64,000 bases of DNA from Longimicrobiales bacterium (GTDB taxonomy: Bacteria > Gemmatimonadota > Gemmatimonadetes > Longimicrobiales > Gaopeijiaceae), in contig CBDFIQ010000001.1 of NCBI GenBank assembly GCA_965248195.1, forward strand, positions 1,024,001 to 1,088,000, written 5' to 3'. The translations under genes were made by a program, and so were the position numbers. Shown one piece after another: positions 52,179-62,908 of this stretch; position 1 is the first letter of the stretch; each line of letters opens with the position of its first letter. The notes under the pieces were generated by a model. The model saw nothing but the letters and a program-made list of their open reading frames with translations. It had not been told where the DNA came from and searched no databases.

Positions 52179-54237
52179 TAGTTGCCTGCCGCCGTTGCCC
52201 CCGAGACGACGCGTGCAACTTCCTCCACCCAATTCGTGATGACGTGGATGCGATCGGCCGACGGCTCTGATGGGACATCGATCACCAGGAAGCGCCTTCC
52301 GTCGGGGTGGAGATCATACGAGCGCTCCCCCACGTTGAGGTAGGCCCCCTCGAAGATCAGCCTCGGTTGGCCGACCGTCAGTTCCGGCTCCGTCTCGATC
52401 CGGAACCTGTCAACGACAATGGGACACTCTACGGGATTAATTAGAGAGCAATATCCTGTGTGGTGAGGGAAGGGATGGGAGGATTGATGTAGACGGCCTC
52501 CGGGAGCGGTTTGGGCTTCGGCACACCTGTGACGAAGCGTTCGGGATGAGCGGCCCATGCTTCGCGGAGCACGGATTTCCTGCCGGCAATGACCTGATCG
52601 GCGTTCCCGAAGTGGACCTGCTCGGGGGTTAGCATCGAGATACCGCCATGGCGGTGCTCGGCATTGTACCAGCGGAAGAACGATCGACACAACGTCTTGG
52701 CCTGGCCCTGATCCCCGAACCGCCCGGGAAACGAGGGATGGTACTTCAAGGTTTTGAACTGAGCCTCGGAAAACGGGTTGTCATCCGACACCTGAGGCCG
52801 GCTCAACGAGCGAGTCACGCCGAGGTCAGCGAGAAGTTGAGCGGTGCATTGGCTCGTCATTGGAGCTCCCCGATCCGAGTGCAGGGTCAGGACCCGGGGC
52901 TGGACGCCATGCTTCAGGCAGCTCTGCTGGATCAACCGGCCGGCCAGGGCCGAGTTCTCCCGGTCCGCCACCATCCAGCCCACGACGTAGCGGCTGTAGA
53001 TGTCCATGATGACGTAGAGGTAGTAATAGCTCCACTTCTTCGGCCCGAGTAGCCGCGTGATATCCCAGGACCACACCTGGTTCGGCGCCGTGGCCATCAA
53101 CTCGGGCTTCTTGTACTCGGGATGGGTGCGCTGCGCCCGGCGTTCCTGAACCGGCACCTCGGAGGCCAGAACACGATACATCGTGCGTTCGCTGCACAGG
53201 TAGACCTCTTCGTCGAGCAGCGTGGCCACCACCTCGGCGGGTGAGCGGTCCACGAACCGCTCCGAACACAGCGTGTCGAAGACCTCGCCTCGTTCCGTCT
53301 CGCTCAATGCCCGGGCGGGCGTCGGGCGGGGCTGCCGTTGCCCGGTCGATGGGCCTCGACGACGGTAGAACGTCGATCGGGAGACCTCGAGAGCCGCGCA
53401 CGCCGGTTTTACACCGACGTGCTTAGCCAGCTCATCGGCCGCCTTCAAGAGTTCGTCCCGTCGTCGAGGCTTATCCCCAGCAGCCCCGCAACTTTTCCCT
53501 GCACGTCGATGATCAGGTGTGCCTTCCTGAGCTCATTCTCGAGCCGTGCGTTTTGCCGCTCCAGCTTGCGTACCTTCTCATCCAGCGGATTCCGCTCCGG
53601 CTTGCGGCCGCGTTTCTTCGACAGGGCCTTCAGCGACCCGCTATGCGCCGCCTTGCGCCACGTCGTCAGGTGCGACGAGTACAGGCCCTCGCGCCGCAGG
53701 AGCTGACCCACCTCGCCGGGCTCGGTGCACCGGTCCGCTTCTTCGACGATCCGCAGCTTGTACGATGGACTGAACCGCCGGCGTAGCGGCCTATCTACTA
53801 CCTCCGGGTCCGCAGGAGCTGCCGCGCTTCGCTTGGCCTCCCCGATTCCAGGGGCACTACCATTCTCTTCCATTCTCTCTCGCAGTCCCAACATGTTCGT
53901 TTTCTCTGCCTTCGCCCTACTCTAATTCTTTGCGTGCTCCGTGTCTCACGTACGTTGGCAGAGAGGGATCGGGACCGCCCACCAACGGTTGCTACTTCGG
54001 TAGTAGATCTCGCTGCCGTCGCTCGACCACAGGGGCTCTTCCGCGTTGTCGTGCACCGAGACTTTCTCCCGTGACGCTCCGGTGCGAGGGAAGGGTTCGA
54101 CATAGACCTGATACTGGCCAGAGATATCCGAAGTATAGGCAACCCAGTCCCCGTTCGGCTCGAGAACAGCTCCCCACTCGTTCGCGTCAGTAGCGAGGTA
54201 GACCTCTGCTTGACTCAACGTATCGACCATCCACAGG
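52178..54237 (-). pseudogene. C-terminal PD40/TolB-like beta-propeller remnant, of the kind found on Ser/Thr kinases, split by an IS3 element and 5'-truncated
   Basis: PNGDWVAYTSDISGQYQVYV...PLWSSDGSEIYY...WAVPI|ETEP...SYDLHPDGRRFL...VITNW rejoins in frame across the TSD. Confidence 0.8.
52401..53967 (-). mobile_element. IS3-family element type B, copy 1 (1567 bp); orfA 53445..53894, orfB 52441..53448
   Basis: DDE motifs WSWDIT, LHSDRG, DDNPFSEAQF; TSD (G)ATC; subterminal IRs TGTCAACG/TGCCAACG. Confidence 0.92.
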
Positions 54238-55436
54238 TGAATCGCCCCGGGTTCATCGGAGACTGTTTGACTTGAGTGTCAGAGGCTCACCTGGAGCGTC
54301 CTGACGCGAATAATACAACTCTTCGTACTCGGCCGGCGGGATATGGCCGTGGGGCTCGAAGAGGCGATGGTGATTGAACCACCAGACCCATTCGAGGGTG
54401 GCGAGCTCGATGTCTTCGAGGGTGCGCCACGGACCGCGTGGACGAATGAGCTCGGTCTTGTAGAGTCCGATGATCGTCTCGGCCAGGGCGTTGTCATACG
54501 AATCCCCCCGGCTGCCTACGGACGGCTCGATGCCTGCCAACGCCAGGCGCTCGGTGTAGCGGATAGACAGGTACTGCCCCCCGCGGTCGCTGTGATGCAC
54601 CAGGCGCTTGTCTGCGTCGTCCTCGCGTTCACAGATCGCCTGCTCGAGAGCGTCGAGCGCTAAGTCACTGCGTAATGAGTTCGAGACCCGCCATCCGACG
54701 ATGCGACGGCTGAACGCATCGATCACGAACGCCACGAAGACAAACGCATGGCCCGTCCGCACGTACGTGAGGTCCGAGACCCACAGCTCGTTGGGACGTG
54801 CCGCGCTGAAGTCTCGGTTCACGAGGTCCAGCGGGCGCTCGTCGCCCTCCGCCGTGTGCGTTGTCACCTTGAAGCGCCGCCCTCGCGTAACCCCACAAAG
54901 CTCCAGTTCCTTCATGAGCCGAGCCACCGTGCATCGAGCCACGGTGATGCCTTCCCGGTTCAGCTGCTTCCACACCTTCTTCGCCCCGTAGACCTGGAAG
55001 TTCTGCATCCACACTCGACGGATCTCCGGCTTCAGCATCTCGTCGCGCTGAGCCCGGACCGATCGTAGCGTCGGATCTGCCTGCATCGCCTTGTGCGTGT
55101 AGTAGGTCGACGGAGCGATCGGCAGTACCTCGCAGATCGGCTCGACTCCGTACGTGGGCCGGTAATCGTCGATGAAGGCCACCATCACCGAACTCGGCGG
55201 TCGAGCTCCGCCTGTGCGAAATACGCCGATGCCTTACGCAGAATCTCGTTCGCCCGCTTCAGCTCACGATTCTCACGCTCCAGCACCTTCAGTCGCTCAC
55301 GCTCTTCTGTCTTGAGACCGGGCCGTTGCCCCGTGTCTCGCTCCGCTCGTCGAACCCATTTACGTAGCGTCTCCGCCGTGCACCCGATCTTCTCCGAGAT
55401 CGAGCAGATCGCCGCCCACTGTGAGCTGTACTCAGG
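54238..55436 (-). mobile_element. IS3 (IS51 group-like) copy 2, left end deleted; orfB 54253..55188 intact, orfA truncated
   Basis: Matches ~40621-41819 in reverse; ends at the type B element. Confidence 0.92.
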
Positions 55437-57003
55437 CCCTCTCTGCCAACGTACGTGAGACACGGAGCACGCAAAGAATTAGAGTAGGGCGAAGGCAGAG
55501 AAAACGAACATGTTGGGACTGCGAGAGAGAATGGAAGAGAATGGTAGTGCCCCTGGAATCGGGGAGGCCAAGCGAAGCGCGGCAGCTCCTGCGGACCCGG
55601 AGGTAGTAGATAGGCCGCTACGCCGGCGGTTCAGTCCATCGTACAAGCTGCGGATCGTCGAAGAAGCGGACCGGTGCACCGAGCCCGGCGAGGTGGGTCA
55701 GCTCCTGCGGCGCGAGGGCCTGTACTCGTCGCACCTGACGACGTGGCGCAAGGCGGCGCATAGCGGGTCGCTGAAGGCCCTGTCGAAGAAACGCGGCCGC
55801 AAGCCGGAGCGGAATCCGCTGGATGAGAAGGTACGCAAGCTGGAGCGGCAAAACGCACGGCTCGAGAATGAGCTCAGGAAGGCACACCTGATCATCGACG
55901 TGCAGGGAAAAGTTGCGGGGCTGCTGGGGATAAGCCTCGACGACGGGACGAACTCTTGAAGGCGGCCGATGAGCTGGCTAAGCACGTCGGTGTAAAACCG
56001 GCGTGCGCGGCTCTCGAGGTCTCCCGATCGACGTTCTACCGTCGTCGAGGCCCATCGACCGGGCAACGGCAGCCCCGCCCGACGCCCGCCCGGGCATTGA
56101 GCGAGACGGAACGAGGCGAGGTCTTCGACACGCTGTGTTCGGAGCGGTTCGTGGACCGCTCACCCGCCGAGGTGGTGGCCACGCTGCTCGACGAAGAGGT
56201 CTACCTGTGCAGCGAACGCACGATGTATCGTGTTCTGGCCTCCGAGGTGCCGGTTCAGGAACGCCGGGCGCAGCGCACCCATCCCGAGTACAAGAAGCCC
56301 GAGTTGATGGCCACGGCGCCGAACCAGGTGTGGTCCTGGGATATCACGCGGCTACTCGGGCCGAAGAAGTGGAGCTATTACTACCTCTACGTCATCATGG
56401 ACATCTACAGCCGCTACGTCGTGGGCTGGATGGTGGCGGACCGGGAGAACTCGGCCCTGGCCGGCCGGTTGATCCAGCAGAGCTGCCTGAAGCATGGCGT
56501 CCAGCCCCGGGTCCTGACCCTGCACTCGGATCGGGGAGCTCCAATGACGAGCCAATGCACCGCTCAACTTCTCGCTGACCTCGGCGTGACTCGCTCGTTG
56601 AGCCGGCCTCAGGTGTCGGATGACAACCCGTTTTCCGAGGCTCAGTTCAAAACCTTGAAGTACCATCCCTCGTTTCCCGGGCGGTTCGGGGATCAGGGCC
56701 AGGCCAAGACGTTGTGTCGATCGTTCTTCCGCTGGTACAATGCCGAGCACCGCCATGGCGGTATCTCGATGCTAACCCCCGAGCAGGTCCACTTCGGGAA
56801 CGCCGATCAGGTCATTGCCGGCAGGAAATCCGTGCTCCGCGAAGCATGGGCCGCTCATCCCGAACGCTTCGTCACAGGTGTGCCGAAGCCCAAACCGCTC
56901 CCGGAGGCCGTCTACATCAATCCTCCCATCCCTTCCCTCACCACACAGGATATTGCTCTCTAATTAATCCCGTAGAGTGTCCCATTGTCGTTGACAGGTT
57001 CCG
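55437..57003 (+). mobile_element. IS3-family element type B, copy 2; orfA 55510..55959, orfB 55956..56963
   Basis: Reverse complement of 52401-53967; no TSD (AGG vs GAC). Confidence 0.92.
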
Positions 57004-57388: not shown

Positions 57389-57494
57389 CGGGTCTTGCGG
57401 CGGATGCGGTACCATCTAACAAGCGATTGCTGCGGTCGCGGTAAGCATCAGGCTCGCGCGCTCCGCTTGCGGAGGGCATCTTAGCCGCGCAGCA

Positions 57495-57821
57495 TCTATA
57501 AGGTGAAGGGAGTCAACAGGGCGTAGCCCTCCCTTACCCGTCCGGGGTCCCGGAGGGGTGGCTCGGTCCACTGGTCTGTAGCTCAAGGCCTGCGTGATCA
57601 TCTTCCGTTTTTCATCCTTCAGTACCAACGTCGCGTCCGATCTTGGGTGAGTCTCCTCTCACGAGGAACTCAGGCATCTATTCAGGTTTCATCCCAGCGC
57701 GGGGATGTCCGAAGATCTGCTATGCGAGCGGGGGGCTCAATCAGAATCTGAGGGTCGTCGTGCGACATGCTGCGCGCGGAGCTCACCCCTGTCGTGGTAC
57801 GGTCCATCATCGTGTGTCATC
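57495..57821 (-). ncRNA. Predicted bridge/seekRNA region
   Basis: Target matches at 57768-57776 and 57742-57748; donor-junction matches at 57675-57681 and 57639-57644. Confidence 0.7.
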
Positions 57822-58859
57822 TCAGTTTGATCGAGCCACGGGTTCATCGTGCCAGACCTCACCCGTACGGAGCATCGCGTGCACAGCACGAGCGAGGCGC
57901 CGAGCGGTAGCGACCCGAGCGACCTGCCACCCGAGCCGTTGCCTGATCAGTTCGTACGACTGTGATAGCCAGCTGTCGGGCGCGTGAGTGACGTGGCTCA
58001 CGACGGTCCGGACGAAGGTGCCCCTCAGCCAACGGTTGGCCCCGGCGGGGATCGATCCGTGGCGGATGGGCCGGAGCCCTGACTGTGAGGAGCGAGGGGC
58101 TAGACCGGCGTAGCTGACCAGGTGCCCCGGTGTACGAAATCGTTTGATGGGCAACGTCTCGGTGGCGATGAGCAATGCCCGATAGGAACCGACGCCCGGG
58201 ATGGTCTCGAGCAGAGCTACAGCGGGGACCTTGCGGCCTACGTGCTCAACCCTGCGATCAAGCGTTTTGATCATCGGCACGATCTGGTCGATGAGTTCCC
58301 ACTGCATGTCGATGAACAGACGCCGCTCGGCTCCGAGCAGCGGCCACGCCACGTCATGCACCCACTGGCGTCCATCCTGGGTGAGCAGACGCCCACGCTC
58401 CAGATGAAGCCCGACGTTGTGGATCTGGGCATGGATGCGGTTCACCATGCGTGTGCGTTCGCGTACGAGTCGTGCCCGGTTGCGTAGCAGTACCGCCTGC
58501 TCCCGCTGCTCGACGCACTTCGGATGGACCTCGGGGATGAGGCCCGCGAGTCGCATACGCGCCAACAACTCGGCGTCGATGTCGTCACTCTTGTAGTTGG
58601 ACTCGGCGATGACTCGGAGCCGCTTGGCGTGAGCGAGCACGAAGTCGATCCCCCGCTCTTGGAGTCGATCGAAGAGCCACGGCCAGGCCGGACTCGTCTC
58701 GACGACCACCTCCAGGGGCTGATACTGCTCCAGTAGATCATTGAGCCGATCCTCTTGCGTGTTCTTGATCCGGATGGGTCCGGCAACGAGCTGACCTGTG
58801 TTGCTCACGATGGCGATCACCGAATACGTTGCGTGAGCATCGATTCCTGCGACAAACAT
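57822..58859 (-). CDS. IS110-family DEDD transposase/recombinase
   Basis: GIDAH, VVET, KSDDIDA, IPGVG, SYAGLAP..SQSG. Confidence 0.95.
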   Translation of the reverse strand: MFVAGIDAHATYSVIAIVSNTGQLVAGPIRIKNTQEDRLNDLLEQYQPLEVVVETSPAWPWLFDRLQERGIDFVLAHAKRLRVIAESNYKSDDIDAELLARMRLAGLIPEVHPKCVEQREQAVLLRNRARLVRERTRMVNRIHAQIHNVGLHLERGRLLTQDGRQWVHDVAWPLLGAERRLFIDMQWELIDQIVPMIKTLDRRVEHVGRKVPAVALLETIPGVGSYRALLIATETLPIKRFRTPGHLVSYAGLAPRSSQSGLRPIRHGSIPAGANRWLRGTFVRTVVSHVTHAPDSWLSQSYELIRQRLGWQVARVATARRLARAVHAMLRTGEVWHDEPVARSN

Positions 58860-59009
58860 GGCTGGCCTCCTTGGGTTGGGTGCCGCAGGCCTTTGAGCAA
58901 GATCAGCGTAACGCCACGCTCGAGTGAGGTCAGCCTTTCGCCTTATAAGATCAGAATCGCAGAGACGTTAGAACGCGCCAAGAGGTTCAGGACAGGAGAG
59001 GCACAACCC

Positions 59010-60107
59010 ATGACTATGTCCGGCCAAGCCCGCTCCAAAACCGAGCAGCCCTTCTCGCCAGGTCGACTCGCCGATCCTAACAGAGTCTTGAAGACCGATC
59101 CTCGCGCCGACCCTCGAATGGTGGCTGCCCTCGCCGAATTTGGCTTCGACGAGGCCCCACCGCCCGCACCGGTCACCGCCGAATCGCCACTCGACGAAAT
59201 ACTCGAGTTCATTGCCGTTGCGGAGCCGGGCTACGAAGACCTCTTCACAGCCTGGCTAGCGGACTTACCTCCGATTGAGAGTGTGGAGAGGCGTACCGAG
59301 GTGATAAGGGGAGTGGACGACAACGACATCAGCCTCTTTATCCACAAGCCCCAGAATGCTTCTGGCCCCTTACCCTGTGTGTATCATATCCACGGAGGTG
59401 CCATGGTCATTCTGGAGGCCGCCGGCTCTCTCGCCACGCGCTGGCGCGACGAGCTTTCCGCTGTCGGAATGGTGGTGGTGGGCGTGGAGTTTCGGAACGG
59501 CGCAGGGAAGCTCGGCAACCACCCGTTCCCTGCAGGACTCAACGATTGCATGAGCGGGCTACAGTGGACGTTCGATAACAAGGCCGCGCTTGGGATTTCC
59601 ACGATTGTGGTGTCCGGTGAGTCAGGCGGCGGAAACCTCAGTCTTGCCGTGAGTCTAAAGGCCAAGAGGGATGACAAGCTGAAGCAGATCGATGGCACGT
59701 ATGCGCTCTGTCCGTACATCTCGAACGCCTGGGCCAACAAAATCCAAGAGCTTCCATCCCTCTACGAGAACGACGACTACTTCATGAGCTGCAGCACGTT
59801 GGGCGCGTGTGCTGTCGCGTACGACCCTGCACACGAGAACGATCACAATCCGCTTTGCTGGCCCTATTTCGCCGAGACTGAGGAGCTGCAGGGTCTGCCC
59901 CCACATGCCATATCGGTCAATGAGCTAGACCCTTTGCGGGACGAGGGGCTGCAGTACTACCAGATGCTCATGGCGGCCGGCGTGAGTGTCTACGGCCGGA
60001 CCGTCAACGGCACCTGCCACGCTGGCGATATGATTTTTCGAAAAGTGCTCCCGGAAGTATCAGCGGCCACGATTCGAGACATCAAGGGGTTCGCGGACTC
60101 GTTGTAG
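59010..60107 (+). CDS. HSL-family alpha/beta hydrolase (esterase)
   Basis: HIHGGA, GESGGGNL, DPLRDEG, GTCH; RBS AGGAG just after attC R'. Confidence 0.92.
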   Translation: MTMSGQARSKTEQPFSPGRLADPNRVLKTDPRADPRMVAALAEFGFDEAPPPAPVTAESPLDEILEFIAVAEPGYEDLFTAWLADLPPIESVERRTEVIRGVDDNDISLFIHKPQNASGPLPCVYHIHGGAMVILEAAGSLATRWRDELSAVGMVVVGVEFRNGAGKLGNHPFPAGLNDCMSGLQWTFDNKAALGISTIVVSGESGGGNLSLAVSLKAKRDDKLKQIDGTYALCPYISNAWANKIQELPSLYENDDYFMSCSTLGACAVAYDPAHENDHNPLCWPYFAETEELQGLPPHAISVNELDPLRDEGLQYYQMLMAAGVSVYGRTVNGTCHAGDMIFRKVLPEVSAATIRDIKGFADSL

Positions 60108-60395
60108 TCGGGCTCGGCCAAACCGCGGTGCCGGGCCGTCGTGACGGCGGTCGGTTGACGCGCGTATGTCTCTCCACGGTAGCGGGCAAGACCCCTGTGC
60201 TTAAACTGATTGAAGGGGAACTCGAGCTGCCAGCCGTCATGCGCGATCGGCGTCCTGGGAGGGGTCGGGCGTCAGGACCGAGCCCCAGTTCACGGAACAT
60301 CCTAGCGCTCAACGTCCCCACCACCCTACAATTCCCCCCCCGGGTCCTCCTTCCTCGGACTCGGTTCGGTTTCCCCGGGCCTGAGAGGCAATCCC

Positions 60396-61865
60396 ATGCG
60401 CGCACCGAACCTGATGGCGATCCGGTCGACCTTGTTCGTCGCTCTCACGACAGCTGCCCTCACCACCCTCGCGCTCGCGGCCGCACCGACCCACGCGGGC
60501 GCCCAGGCGACCGCCTCGGAGTCCGAGGTCCTGGCTCAGATCGACCTCTTCTCCGCGTGGCTCGAAGGTCAGATCGAGATCCGTGGACTACCGGGCGCCG
60601 TCGTCGGCGTCGTTTCGGGTGATGAGCTGGTGTGGGCTGAGGGCTTCGGACGTGCGGTCGTCGATGCGGATCGGCCCATGGAGACCGATACGCGCTTCCG
60701 CATGGCTTCGCACAGCAAGCTCTTCACCGCAACCGCGATCATGCAGCTCCGGGAACAAGGCAAGGTTCGGCTTGATGATCCCGTCACCGATTACCTGCCA
60801 TGGTTCACGTTCCAGAGCGCCGCTCCTGACGATCCCCCGGTCACCATCGAGCACCTGCTAACGCACAGCTCCGGGCTCCCGCACGAGGCCGGTTCGCACT
60901 GGACCGACTTCGACTTCCCAACCGCCGAGGAGGTCCTCGAGTTGATTCCCGATCGTAAGGCCCCCTTCTCACCCGAAGTCCACTGGAAGTACTCGAACCT
61001 CGCCTACACCATCGCCGGCATGATCGTGGAGGAGATCAGCGGGATGCGCTGGGCGGACTACCTGCAGCAGAACATCTTTGACCCGCTCGGCATGAGTTCG
61101 TCTAGCGTCGATCTGCCGGACGCGAAGATGGCTACTGGGTACGGTCGTCGGATGCCGGACGGCTCTCGGCAGGTCTTTCCGTTCGTCGACGCGTGCGGGA
61201 TGGCCGCCGCGACGGGACTTACGTCGACGGTCGAAGACATGGCCCGCTTCGTGTCTGCCCAGTTTCGGACGGGGGCCCGCGGCGGTGATCGGCTTCTGAG
61301 GACGGCATCGCTTCGGGAGATGCATCGTGTGCGCATGCTCGAAAACACGTGGACGAGCGGCCAAGGCATTGGATTCAGCGTGCGACGGATCGACGGGAAG
61401 CTCTATGTCGGCCACGGCGGCGGATACCCGGGCTACACGACGAATACGACGATACAGCTCGACTCGAAGGTTGGTGTAATCGTTCTAACGAACTCGAATG
61501 ACTCGAACCCTTCCCAGATCGCGGAGCAGCTCATGGGCACGGTCGGCGAAGCTGTCGCCTCCGCGACATCGGTCGAGCCGGAGCCCGTCGCGTGGGATCC
61601 CGCGTGGGAGCGCTTCGCCGGTGTGTACCGGAGCCGCGGCGGCGAGACGCGAGTCCTCGTCATGAACGAACGGCTGGTGACGATGAATCCGTGGGGCACG
61701 AGTATCGGGGACCCGACCCAACTCGAACCGATCGGCGACGGTACGTTTCGCATGGTGGCGCCCACAGGTGGTGGCCCGGTCGGCGAGATCGTACGGTTCG
61801 TCGAGGAGAACGGCGAGGTCGTACGGATGATTACAGGAGATTCGTACTCGGTACGCGTGCGCTAA
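60396..61865 (+). CDS. Secreted serine hydrolase, beta-lactamase (class C-like) family
   Basis: SHSK (SxxK), LLTHSSGL, YSN, HGG. Confidence 0.92.
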   Translation: MRAPNLMAIRSTLFVALTTAALTTLALAAAPTHAGAQATASESEVLAQIDLFSAWLEGQIEIRGLPGAVVGVVSGDELVWAEGFGRAVVDADRPMETDTRFRMASHSKLFTATAIMQLREQGKVRLDDPVTDYLPWFTFQSAAPDDPPVTIEHLLTHSSGLPHEAGSHWTDFDFPTAEEVLELIPDRKAPFSPEVHWKYSNLAYTIAGMIVEEISGMRWADYLQQNIFDPLGMSSSSVDLPDAKMATGYGRRMPDGSRQVFPFVDACGMAAATGLTSTVEDMARFVSAQFRTGARGGDRLLRTASLREMHRVRMLENTWTSGQGIGFSVRRIDGKLYVGHGGGYPGYTTNTTIQLDSKVGVIVLTNSNDSNPSQIAEQLMGTVGEAVASATSVEPEPVAWDPAWERFAGVYRSRGGETRVLVMNERLVTMNPWGTSIGDPTQLEPIGDGTFRMVAPTGGGPVGEIVRFVEENGEVVRMITGDSYSVRVR

Positions 61866-61952
61866 AAGCGGCTCGACCCGCCGCGCCCGGGACAAGGACC
61901 GAACTACCCGCCCCTCCCCGCCGCGCGCGGGAGGAGATCGGCTTGACGCCGC

Positions 61953-62495
61953 TCAGTTCATCGATGGGTCGTACGGCATCCGGGACAGTTGCCGGTACTC
62001 CGGTCCCTTCCGCTCGAGCACCCTACTCCAGAGCAAGTCGGGCGCATCAGTGAACACGTCATCCTCGCGCGCAGGCTCGATGATCCAACTGCCGGCGGCC
62101 ATCTCCGCCTCGAGCTGGCCCGGCCCCCATCCTGAGTAGCCCGCAAACACCCGCGCCCTGAGAATGCTCGGCTCGATGTTCGGCGAGACCGCGCCCACGA
62201 GAAAGCCCACGGACCCGAATACCAGGATATCCGCTAACTTGGGGTCCGCGAACTCGGCGAGGAGCACGGCGCTGGCCGGCTGGACCGGACCGCCCTGGAA
62301 GAGCGGCTCGCCGGGCGGCACCAAGTCGCTCAGGGGCGGAAGCCGCTCCTGGACCGTGACGTTCAAAGCGTGGTTCAAGACAACGCCCAGCGCCCCGTCG
62401 GCGTTGTGCTCCCCGACCAGGACCACTGTGTGGCGGAAGTTCGGATCGTACAGGCCACCGCTGGAGATCAGCAGACGGCCGCGCAGACTCTCCAA
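61953..62495 (-). CDS. YqgE/AlgH (DUF179) family protein
   Basis: DPNF, GALGVVLN, QGGPV, GYSGWGPGQLEAE. Confidence 0.93.
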   Translation of the reverse strand: MESLRGRLLISSGGLYDPNFRHTVVLVGEHNADGALGVVLNHALNVTVQERLPPLSDLVPPGEPLFQGGPVQPASAVLLAEFADPKLADILVFGSVGFLVGAVSPNIEPSILRARVFAGYSGWGPGQLEAEMAAGSWIIEPAREDDVFTDAPDLLWSRVLERKGPEYRQLSRMPYDPSMN

Positions 62496-62694
62496 TTCGT
62501 TACCTCGTCTCGACGGTCAAGGGTCGCCTGCCTCCTCATAGTAACGTAGGCGGCGCTGGAGTGCAGCGCTACGACCGGCAGTGTGCCTGGCCAAGGCCCG
62601 GGAGACCGTTGCGAGGCGAGAGGGCTCGAGATTACGTCCCTCATTGACTCTGAGCTTGAGGTAGCGGGATAGCCCGAACTCCGACCCGGCGGCG

Positions 62695-62795
62695 TTCTAA
62701 CCAGCGATTGCTACTGTCGCGGTAGGCATCAGGCTCGCGCGCTCCGCTTGCGATCACCACATTAGCCGCGCAGAGGATTCGCAGAGACGTTAGGT
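62695..62795 (+). other. attC site 2 (uninterrupted, 101 bp)
   Basis: TTCTAAC...GTTAGGT; shares GCATCAGGCTCGCGCGCTCCGCTTGCG and TTAGCCGCGCAG with attC 1. Confidence 0.8.
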
Positions 62796-62908
62796 CGCTA
62801 TGGACTGGGATTGAGCAGTAGCGGCTCGAGAGGAGCCTGGGGAATTCGGACATTTCGATGTTAGTCTAACCCCCAAGATCCACCCCGCTCCTAGGGAGCA
62901 CCAAGACC

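Follow-up and report, generated by a model that had tools for sequence, protein, structure and literature searches.

The element and its transposase

The window analysed here (the whole stretch of DNA considered, 64,000 nucleotides at positions 1,024,001 to 1,088,000 of contig CBDFIQ010000001.1, assembly GCA_965248195.1) comes from an uncultured Longimicrobiales bacterium of sediment, in the phylum Gemmatimonadota, and its subject is an IS1111-type insertion sequence (IS) lodged in an attC-type site. The genome amounts to 4.86 Mb with 63% G+C in two contigs, C1 and C2; coordinates without a prefix are those of the window. The element is 1457 bp long, lies on the minus strand at 57495..58951, and is very probably an intact member of the IS1111 group whose DEDD transposase is aimed at its target by an RNA from the non-coding region on the 3' side of the transposase gene. 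The boundaries proposed for it from sequence inspection prove exact: seven full copies in the same site and orientation, with identical flanks at both ends, and uninterrupted sites carrying a single TG define both junctions, as set out below.

The only long open reading frame (ORF) of the element is intact and runs on the minus strand from 58859 to 57822, encoding a transposase of 345 amino acids. The protein contains the N-terminal DEDD/RuvC-like domain (PF01548, 59.9 bits, 3.2e-16) and the C-terminal IS116/IS110/IS902 domain (PF02371, 57.1 bits, 2.5e-15), and it scores 194.2 bits against the NCBIfam model NF033542, "IS110 family RNA-guided transposase", for which the cut-off is 140. When the protein is aligned with 16 relatives (A1), residues D7, E54, D92, D95, S260 and G261 do not vary. 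The sequence GLAPRSSQSG is an instance of the GL-P----S/TG motif which, like a length of 330-350 amino acids, is given for IS1111 transposases by Siddiquee et al. 2024 (PMC11187229). Downstream of the gene lie 327 non-coding nucleotides (57495-57821) as against 92 upstream (58860-58951), the longer region being downstream as in IS1111 elements, and a sub-terminal inverted repeat of 14 nt with 12 matches (58934-58947 and 57497-57510) corresponds to the 11-13 bp or so by which such elements are recognized. The left end (58934..58951, minus strand), placed by its sequence and flanks, consists of a 4-nt extension, ATCT, and this repeat; the right end (57495..57510, minus strand), which is inverted with respect to 58934-58951, consists of the repeat and a 2-nt extension (…CCTTATA-GA in the orientation of the element). 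The IS110-family domains, the sub-terminal repeats, the long 3' non-coding region and the GL-P----SG motif together bear out the IS1111-type identity that the original prediction had given to the element.

The split site and the other copies in the genome

Insertion has divided the target into two parts. The left part (57414..57494, plus strand) comprises the R'' box ATCTAAC, the L'' arm, a variable centre, the start of L' and a core CA at 57493-57494; it is identified by its sequence, by a family of sites found with nhmmer and by a hairpin fold. The right part (58952..58973, plus strand) brings a second core CA (58952-58953), the rest of L' and the R' box GTTAGAA, and is identified by its sequence, by empty sites and by the fold. 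Sites of the attC type stand at the 3' ends of the cassettes of an array and have the consensus boxes RYYYAAC (R'') and GTTRRRY (R') flanking an imperfect palindrome. The boxes that begin at 57414 and end at 58973 have this form, except that the last base of GTTAGAA is not Y, and the rejoined site sits between two ORFs on the plus strand, as cassette sites do. Searching the genome with a profile of three empty sites brings out 37 members of this attC family, clustered in arrays, and 9 of the 37 begin exactly at the element's right end. In the predicted DNA fold of the rejoined site a 6-bp R box is followed by an asymmetric spacer and by an L box containing a 2-nt bulge, the centre is branched, and the TG core comes directly after the bulge. 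The strand read in the orientation of the element is the bottom strand of the cassette array.

Seven full-length copies (99-100% identity) and ten partial ones are present in the genome, all 17 at 95-100% identity, and they are spread over both contigs and at least four array regions. The seven full copies, themselves 99-100% identical, occupy the same site in a single orientation, but are surrounded by attC sequences and cassettes that differ. Twelve left flanks read …GCGATTC-TG and ten right flanks start with TG-CTGCGC (eight of them with the full TG-CTGCGCG), an additional right flank departing from that type by a single mismatch, and the orientation is the same throughout. Uninterrupted sites with a single TG are found at C1:489075 and C1:1100250, which fit the guides described below perfectly, and at C1:47825 and C2:2522109, with one mismatch. 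Since the uninterrupted sites carry one TG and the flanks agree, the split CCGCGCAG-CA-GAATCGC and the CA/TG core had been read correctly; the boxes and the 37-member family likewise sustain the claim of insertion at that core of an attC-type site.

Two observations concern the fate of individual copies. The partial copies at C2:1909506-1910027 and C2:1762105-1762333 have flanks that are not attC-like and share about 8 nt with a guide, which suggests occasional insertion outside the arrays by guide match alone. Several copies are cut off, at various internal positions, by one and the same terminal sequence, which belongs to a second mobile element (C1:489611-490010, C1:1106415-1107575, C2:1143765-1144260 and others); this second element, it seems, inserts repeatedly into copies of the first.

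The one integron-integrase-like gene of the genome is truncated; it lies at C1:1112697-1113260 (L168:1501-2064, minus strand), approximately 25 kb from the end of the window. Against TIGR02249 its score is 238.7 bits over positions 120-307, short of the cut-off of 265, and it has two in-frame TAG codons; other tyrosine recombinases of the genome reach at most 122 bits against the same model. Because the sole IntI-like gene is truncated, under the cut-off and interrupted by in-frame TAG, the site is called attC-type and the integron itself is judged to have decayed. The frame of the truncated gene runs into an aldo-keto-reductase-like frame upstream, and an IS256-type transposase gene (L168:141-1370) abuts it.

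Two probable target guides

The original prediction of an RNA guide set rested on four short matches within the 327-nt non-coding region, two of them to the target and two to the predicted circle junction. All four are present, at 57768-57776, 57742-57748, 57675-57681 and 57639-57644, and the spacing within each pair, said to be about 20-30 nt, measures 19 and 30 nt. Among 5000 random 327-nt segments of the same genome, however, 324 contain a target match of at least 9 nt and 2682 one of at least 7 nt, while circle-junction matches of at least 7 and at least 6 nt occur in 1330 and 3517. Most of the four, in a single sequence, are no better than chance; three of them are raised above that level by covariation in relatives. 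Two junction matches were absent from the earlier list, 8 nt at 57596-57603 and 6 nt at 57712-57717. The 8-nt match (AGAUGAUC in the RNA sense) was considered as a guide, is lost in relatives with different ends, and is taken as chance.

The relatives come from 963 transposase homologues in public data (E < 1e-20). Loci were fetched from genomes (77, nearly all of them metagenome-assembled genomes, MAGs, of Gemmatimonadota) and from metagenomes (80), and the resulting 157 loci, with the window, yielded 88 parsed records of RNA and flanks; L numbers below refer to these loci. Across the relatives the RNA scaffold is kept while the named guide segments vary.

Target guide 1, CGCGCAGCA (57768..57776, minus strand), is complementary to the core and 7 nt of right flank on the top strand of the element's orientation. 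For comparison it was parsed as the 11 nt past the basal stem, ending in CA, and its reverse complement was set against the right flank. Over 48 distinct guides agreement averages 6.33 of 9 non-core positions, as against 2.73 when the flanks are permuted (maximum 3.46 in 2000 permutations). By position it is 0.85-0.98 for the core and 6 nt, 0.67 for the seventh and approximately 0.2 beyond; because agreement drops so sharply past the core and 7 nt, the effective guide is the 9 nt at 57768-57776. Grouping at no more than two differences gives 34 classes of guide 1, for 26 of which a right flank is present, and 21 of these 26 agree with it at 8 or more of the 9 positions. The number of classes, 34, would be a minimum for the number of retargeting events.

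Target guide 2, GAUUCUG (57742..57748, minus strand), has the same sense as the left flank and core, and would therefore pair with the other strand. Parsed as the bases immediately before AYUGAGCC, it agrees with the left flank at a mean of 4.49 of 7 positions (41 distinct guides), the permuted mean being 2.10 and the permuted maximum 2.66, and agreement is 0.80-1.0 over the last 4 nt of the flank and the core. Covariation with the flanks, against these permutation controls, thus assigns the two target guides to precisely the segments that had been named for them, and in homologues both change with the target.

Most guide classes target sequences that are unrelated to attC. Three classes of relatives target the same attC family in other registers, at a TG 3 bp further along in L022/L023 and in L088, and at a TG before CGATTC in L108; in each of them both target guides are shifted to fit the new register. 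Where the right junction has CG in place of TG, as in L031 and L148, the RNA has CG also. In one Longimicrobiales MAG (L025:2535-3000, OZ250165.1) the right end of a copy, and a TG after it, lead directly into the non-coding region of a second copy, from a point just past the latter's guide 2. This arrangement may represent insertion into, or recombination with, the guide gene of another copy, guide 2 mimicking the left half of a target.

The fold of the 3' RNA

Comparison of relatives divides the RNA into two modules, both on the minus strand. The target module (57730..57789), recognized by RNAalifold, by pair counts and by compensatory changes, has a basal stem (57779-57789 with 57730-57741), an internal loop with both target guides, and a distal hairpin (57753-57767). 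The donor module (57629..57728), drawn from the fold alignment (A2, 57 sequences), pair counts and a centroid fold, has an outer stem, an internal loop, a helix referred to here as helix A, hairpin 1, a single-stranded guide for the right end, and hairpin 2.

RNAalifold applied to A2 finds three helices, the target basal stem, the distal hairpin and donor hairpin 2, with double changes in 10 of 17 pairs. The fuller structure drawn by comparison has 31 pairs in six helices and is 91.8% paired, versus 29-43% when the partners are slid by one to three columns; both sides have changed at 16 pairs, and not one of 500 shuffles reaches it in any of five measures, figures that are somewhat favourably biased by the structure's having been drawn from the same 57 sequences on which it was scored. 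Pairing reaches 99.5% in the basal stem and 96.9% in the distal hairpin, each with compensatory changes, and the internal loop that separates the two contains both target guides. A check suggested along with the four matches, that they should fall in two internal loops, gives a divided answer: the target guides do lie in an internal loop and the right-end guide is unpaired between hairpins 1 and 2, but the fourth match is inside helix A.

The donor guide and the question of the left end

The right-end donor guide AUAGAUG (57675..57681, minus strand), unpaired between hairpins 1 and 2, has the sequence of the last 5 nt of the element and the core. Guide and right end change together through six states: ATAGG in 51 records, ATAGA in 17, and ATGGC, ATAGC, AGAGG and AGACG in L031, L121, L151 and L157, respectively. 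The third of the proposed matches, CATCTAT, is on this account supported as a donor guide, with a single exception that is considered below.

The left end is another matter. Its bases 1-4 are other than ATCT (ATTC, ATCC, ACCT, ACCC and others) in 27 of 52 distinct combinations, and a mutual-information scan of the RNA against left-end positions gave as its strongest signals positions in hairpin 2 and in the basal stem that mark clades, and no guide. Both strands of helix A were compared with left ends by eye and by table, and no tracking was seen. A bolder account, less likely than not, makes the RNA of this lineage a three-guide device: two guides would read the target and one donor guide, presented from a three-way junction, would read the right end only (5 nt and core), the left end being left to the protein and the long inverted repeat. 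Retargeting would be free in the lineage, and could also take the form of a slide to a nearby TG core within one attC. If that is true, IS1111 elements recognize their donor on a principle other than that of the four-guide IS621 model, and the 34 natural guide-target classes on one scaffold constitute a ready-made specificity map.

Somewhat unlikely, to our mind, is an alternative in which the 5' strand of helix A, AGAUC(A/U), immediately before hairpin 1, reads the left end by pairing with the core and ATCT. In position the segment corresponds to target guide 1, whose end is likewise CA-U ahead of a hairpin; most relatives have AGAUCA-U, the exact complement of TG+ATCT; and in L151 and L157, with left end ACCC, the RNA has GGAUCA, which at one position has changed in the direction expected. 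Nevertheless, the segment is constant in the other 25 of the 27 combinations in which the left end is not ATCT, this element itself has AGAUCU, which does not pair with the T of the core, and GAUAC variants lose complementarity to the left end yet keep the RNA helix.

The four-guide reading that had been proposed at the outset, with AAGAUC (57639-57644; GATCTT in the window) as left-end donor guide pairing with the G of the core and ATCTT of the left end, is improbable. It is true that AAGAUCG is complementary to TGATCTT with one G·T pair, here and in close relatives with the same left end, and that AAGAUC lies inside the donor module, 30 nt from the right-end guide. However, the proposed guide is part of the 3' strand of helix A (AAGAUCGG, 57637..57644, minus strand), which pairs with 57712-57717: in the centroid fold AAGAUC is paired with GAUCUU there, and the GAUC/GAUC pairs form in 44-51 of the 57 A2 rows at each of four positions. 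L045, L145, L114 and L048 have changed both strands jointly (GAUAC with GUAUC) and their left end is still ATCTT, and the two bases before GAUC track their RNA partner (U-A in 14 rows, A-U in 11) and not the left end. A junction match of this length (at least 6 nt), moreover, is the kind that 3517 of the 5000 random segments contain. The fourth match is thus a strand of the conserved helix GAUC(UU)/(AA)GAUC that leaves left-end variation untracked, and because it does not follow the left end the guide set can be read directly only in part: the two target guides and the right-end donor guide can be read, and a left-end guide was not found.

A proposed mechanism and its rivals

The course of events that is most probable may be sketched as follows. 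The RNA would be made, bound by the transposase and direct recombination through a circular intermediate. In the loop of the target module, the 5' strand (CGCGCAGCA) would pair with one DNA strand of the core and 7 nt of the right half-site, and the 3' strand (GAUUCUG) with the opposite strand over the core and 4-5 nt of the left half-site; the guide that is complementary to the top strand comes first, which is the IS1111 order. The two guides would meet at the TG core, where strand exchange would insert the element with no duplication beyond the core. The donor module (57629-57728) would meanwhile present AUAGAUG, corresponding to the last 5 nt of the right end and the core. The target lies in the L' arm of the attC-type site, adjoining the predicted 2-nt bulge, and insertion therefore parts R' from the remainder of the site. 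That the element is a complete and reprogrammable RNA-guided recombinase, as had been proposed, is plausible: its intact ORF, the seven near-identical copies and the natural retargeting among its relatives point that way.

Several findings weigh against an RNA-guided element of this kind, or qualify it. Five of the 26 guide-1 classes with a right flank agree with it at fewer than 8 of 9 positions, some of them through offsets or errors of parsing, and in L038 the right-end guide has AUAGG where the end is ATAGC. A left-end guide was not found, the RNA following the left end in 2 of the 27 non-ATCT combinations (L151 and L157), at one position. Folds of the single sequence are no better than those of shuffled sequences (z = -0.53 for the whole non-coding region, -0.42 for the target module and -1.54 for the donor module), guide 1 is partly self-paired in the minimum-energy fold of the target module, and an Rfam search with the non-coding region at E up to 10 gave chance hits only. 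The terminal extensions measure 6 bp on the left (counting the TG core) and 2 bp on the right, whereas the norm quoted for IS1111 elements is 7 or 6 bp on the left and 3 bp on the right (PMC11187229); the element has the other IS1111 features examined, and this is its sole departure from them. With regard to expression, contigs from three marine-sediment metatranscriptome libraries cover the element and its non-coding region at 90-99% likeness, which is a hint at most: such contigs cannot show transcription, strand or ends, and DNA can occur in RNA libraries. The joint of the circle junction was not seen in the contigs of these three libraries.

An explanation that is very unlikely sees in the element a dead relic, its copies the product of array duplication instead of transposition. 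The copies do lie within repeated cassette arrays, ten of them are partial, and the nearby integron integrase gene is truncated, but seven full copies are 99-100% identical amid differing attC sequences and cassettes, copies are found on both contigs in at least four array regions, and the ORF is intact with all the residues that are invariant in the family. Least likely of all is that the protein recognizes a folded attC hairpin and so sets the target, the RNA matches being incidental, since such a rival, for all that the target is structured and the insertion adjoins a predicted bulge, is contradicted by relatives that have the same RNA scaffold in very different, non-attC sequences matched by both guides, by the partial copies at C2:1909506 and C2:1762105 with their non-attC-like flanks and 8 nt in common with the guides, and by guides that read opposite strands, as fits a duplex target.

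Other features of the locus

The sequence TTGACT (57511..57516, minus strand) lies 16 nt from the right end of the element, and TTGA(C/T) is kept at that distance in the relatives that were parsed. Promoters at the circle junction have been described for ISEc11 (PMC11187229), and TTGACT is possibly the -35 element of such a promoter. On joining to TG and the left end, TTGA(C/T) would face TGATCTTAT at a spacing of 19 nt; the two could conceivably make up a junction promoter with an extended -10, for which the spacing is long.

The metatranscriptome contigs also bear on the target. One of them contains an uninterrupted attC, which appears as a loose end at 57494. At 57400-57507, in two of the RNA libraries (X15 and X16), the summed depth of contigs is 20-100 times as great on the attC part as on the element; this may merely reflect many attC-bearing contigs from many organisms.

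The cassette ending in the split attC is immediately preceded by two IS3-family elements (rve and HTH_21 domains), at 54253-55463 and 55510-56963, arranged head to head, and short ORF fragments flanking the pair repeat each other (53798-54142 and 55421-55606). From the split attC to the next one (62692-62801) is 3.7 kb, which is large for one cassette; the interval contains, at 59010-62495, three genes, for an alpha/beta hydrolase (PF07859), a beta-lactamase-family serine hydrolase (PF00144) and, on the opposite strand, an AlgH-like protein (PF02622).

Comparison with known systems

IS1111-type elements that home to the attC sites of integrons have reportedly been recognized as an IS1111-attC group, by Tetu and Holmes in 2008 and Post and Hall in 2009. 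The present element resembles that group, as described, in using one fixed attC position and one orientation. Its nearest counterparts on plasmids, searched with tblastn, are only distant relatives, IS110-family proteins of no more than 35.9% identity, the one Klebsiella hit among them at 24.8%, and no named IS was matched. Because plasmid-borne relatives all stand at 35.9% identity or less, the targeting of attC was probably acquired separately in this lineage. A search of the PDB with the single transposase sequence gave no match; with a family profile, weak matches confined to the C-terminal domain were obtained with the IS621 transposase (E 3.9e-5) and with ISCro4 (E 2.8e-6).

The element is a clear new example of the mechanism described in 2024 (PMC11187229, PMC11208160), not a new system. 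It extends natural RNA-guided IS1111 targeting to the Gemmatimonadota and to an attC family beyond the clinical Proteobacteria of earlier descriptions. Its particular value lies in the dozens of natural guide-target pairs on one scaffold, which reveal the positions that are read: the core and 7 nt on one side of the target, 4-5 nt and the core on the other, and 5 nt and the core of the right end. This is useful to the engineering of seekRNAs and bridge RNAs, and to understanding how such elements freeze integron arrays, 9 of the 37 attC-family sites abutting a right end; beyond left-end recognition the finding opens no new question.

Closest by published description are ISKpn4 and ISPst6 (and ISPa25 by prediction), which target one end of attC. 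Their seekRNAs, 82-86 nt in length, derive from the 3' region and co-purify with the transposase, and in them the match to the top strand lies 5' of that to the bottom strand (PMC11187229). As far as that account of them extends, they are like the present element in having a DEDD transposase of 330-350 amino acids with the GL-P----S/TG motif, inverted repeats in a sub-terminal position and an extensive non-coding region on the 3' side. The target is again matched by two short segments, one for each strand, of which that for the top strand comes first, and insertion is at one end of attC in a fixed orientation. The differences are those of lineage, here represented by Gemmatimonadota MAGs, and of attC family and target sequence; the likeness is to published descriptions, of an element that is known here from its sequence alone.

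Bridge RNAs are predicted in the right end of 93% of IS1111 elements by Durrant et al. 2024 (PMC11208160). With the bridge RNA of IS621, as presented there and in structures such as 8wt6, the RNA analysed here has in common the division into target and donor modules, and internal-loop guides that read both strands and overlap at a 2-nt core. In contrast with IS621, the RNA is at the 3' and not the 5' end of the element, the order of the guides is reversed and the inverted repeats are long; the donor module, moreover, takes in the present drawing the form of a three-way junction in which a single guide, that for the right end, covaries, in place of a loop with two.

Natural retargeting likewise has a precedent in ISEc11 and ISXne4, a pair with related transposases, a conserved RNA stem, and altered guide bases and target, to judge from the portion of PMC11187229 that deals with them. 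The lineage described here repeats that pattern in a much larger series, with 34 guide classes on one scaffold and three registers on one attC family.

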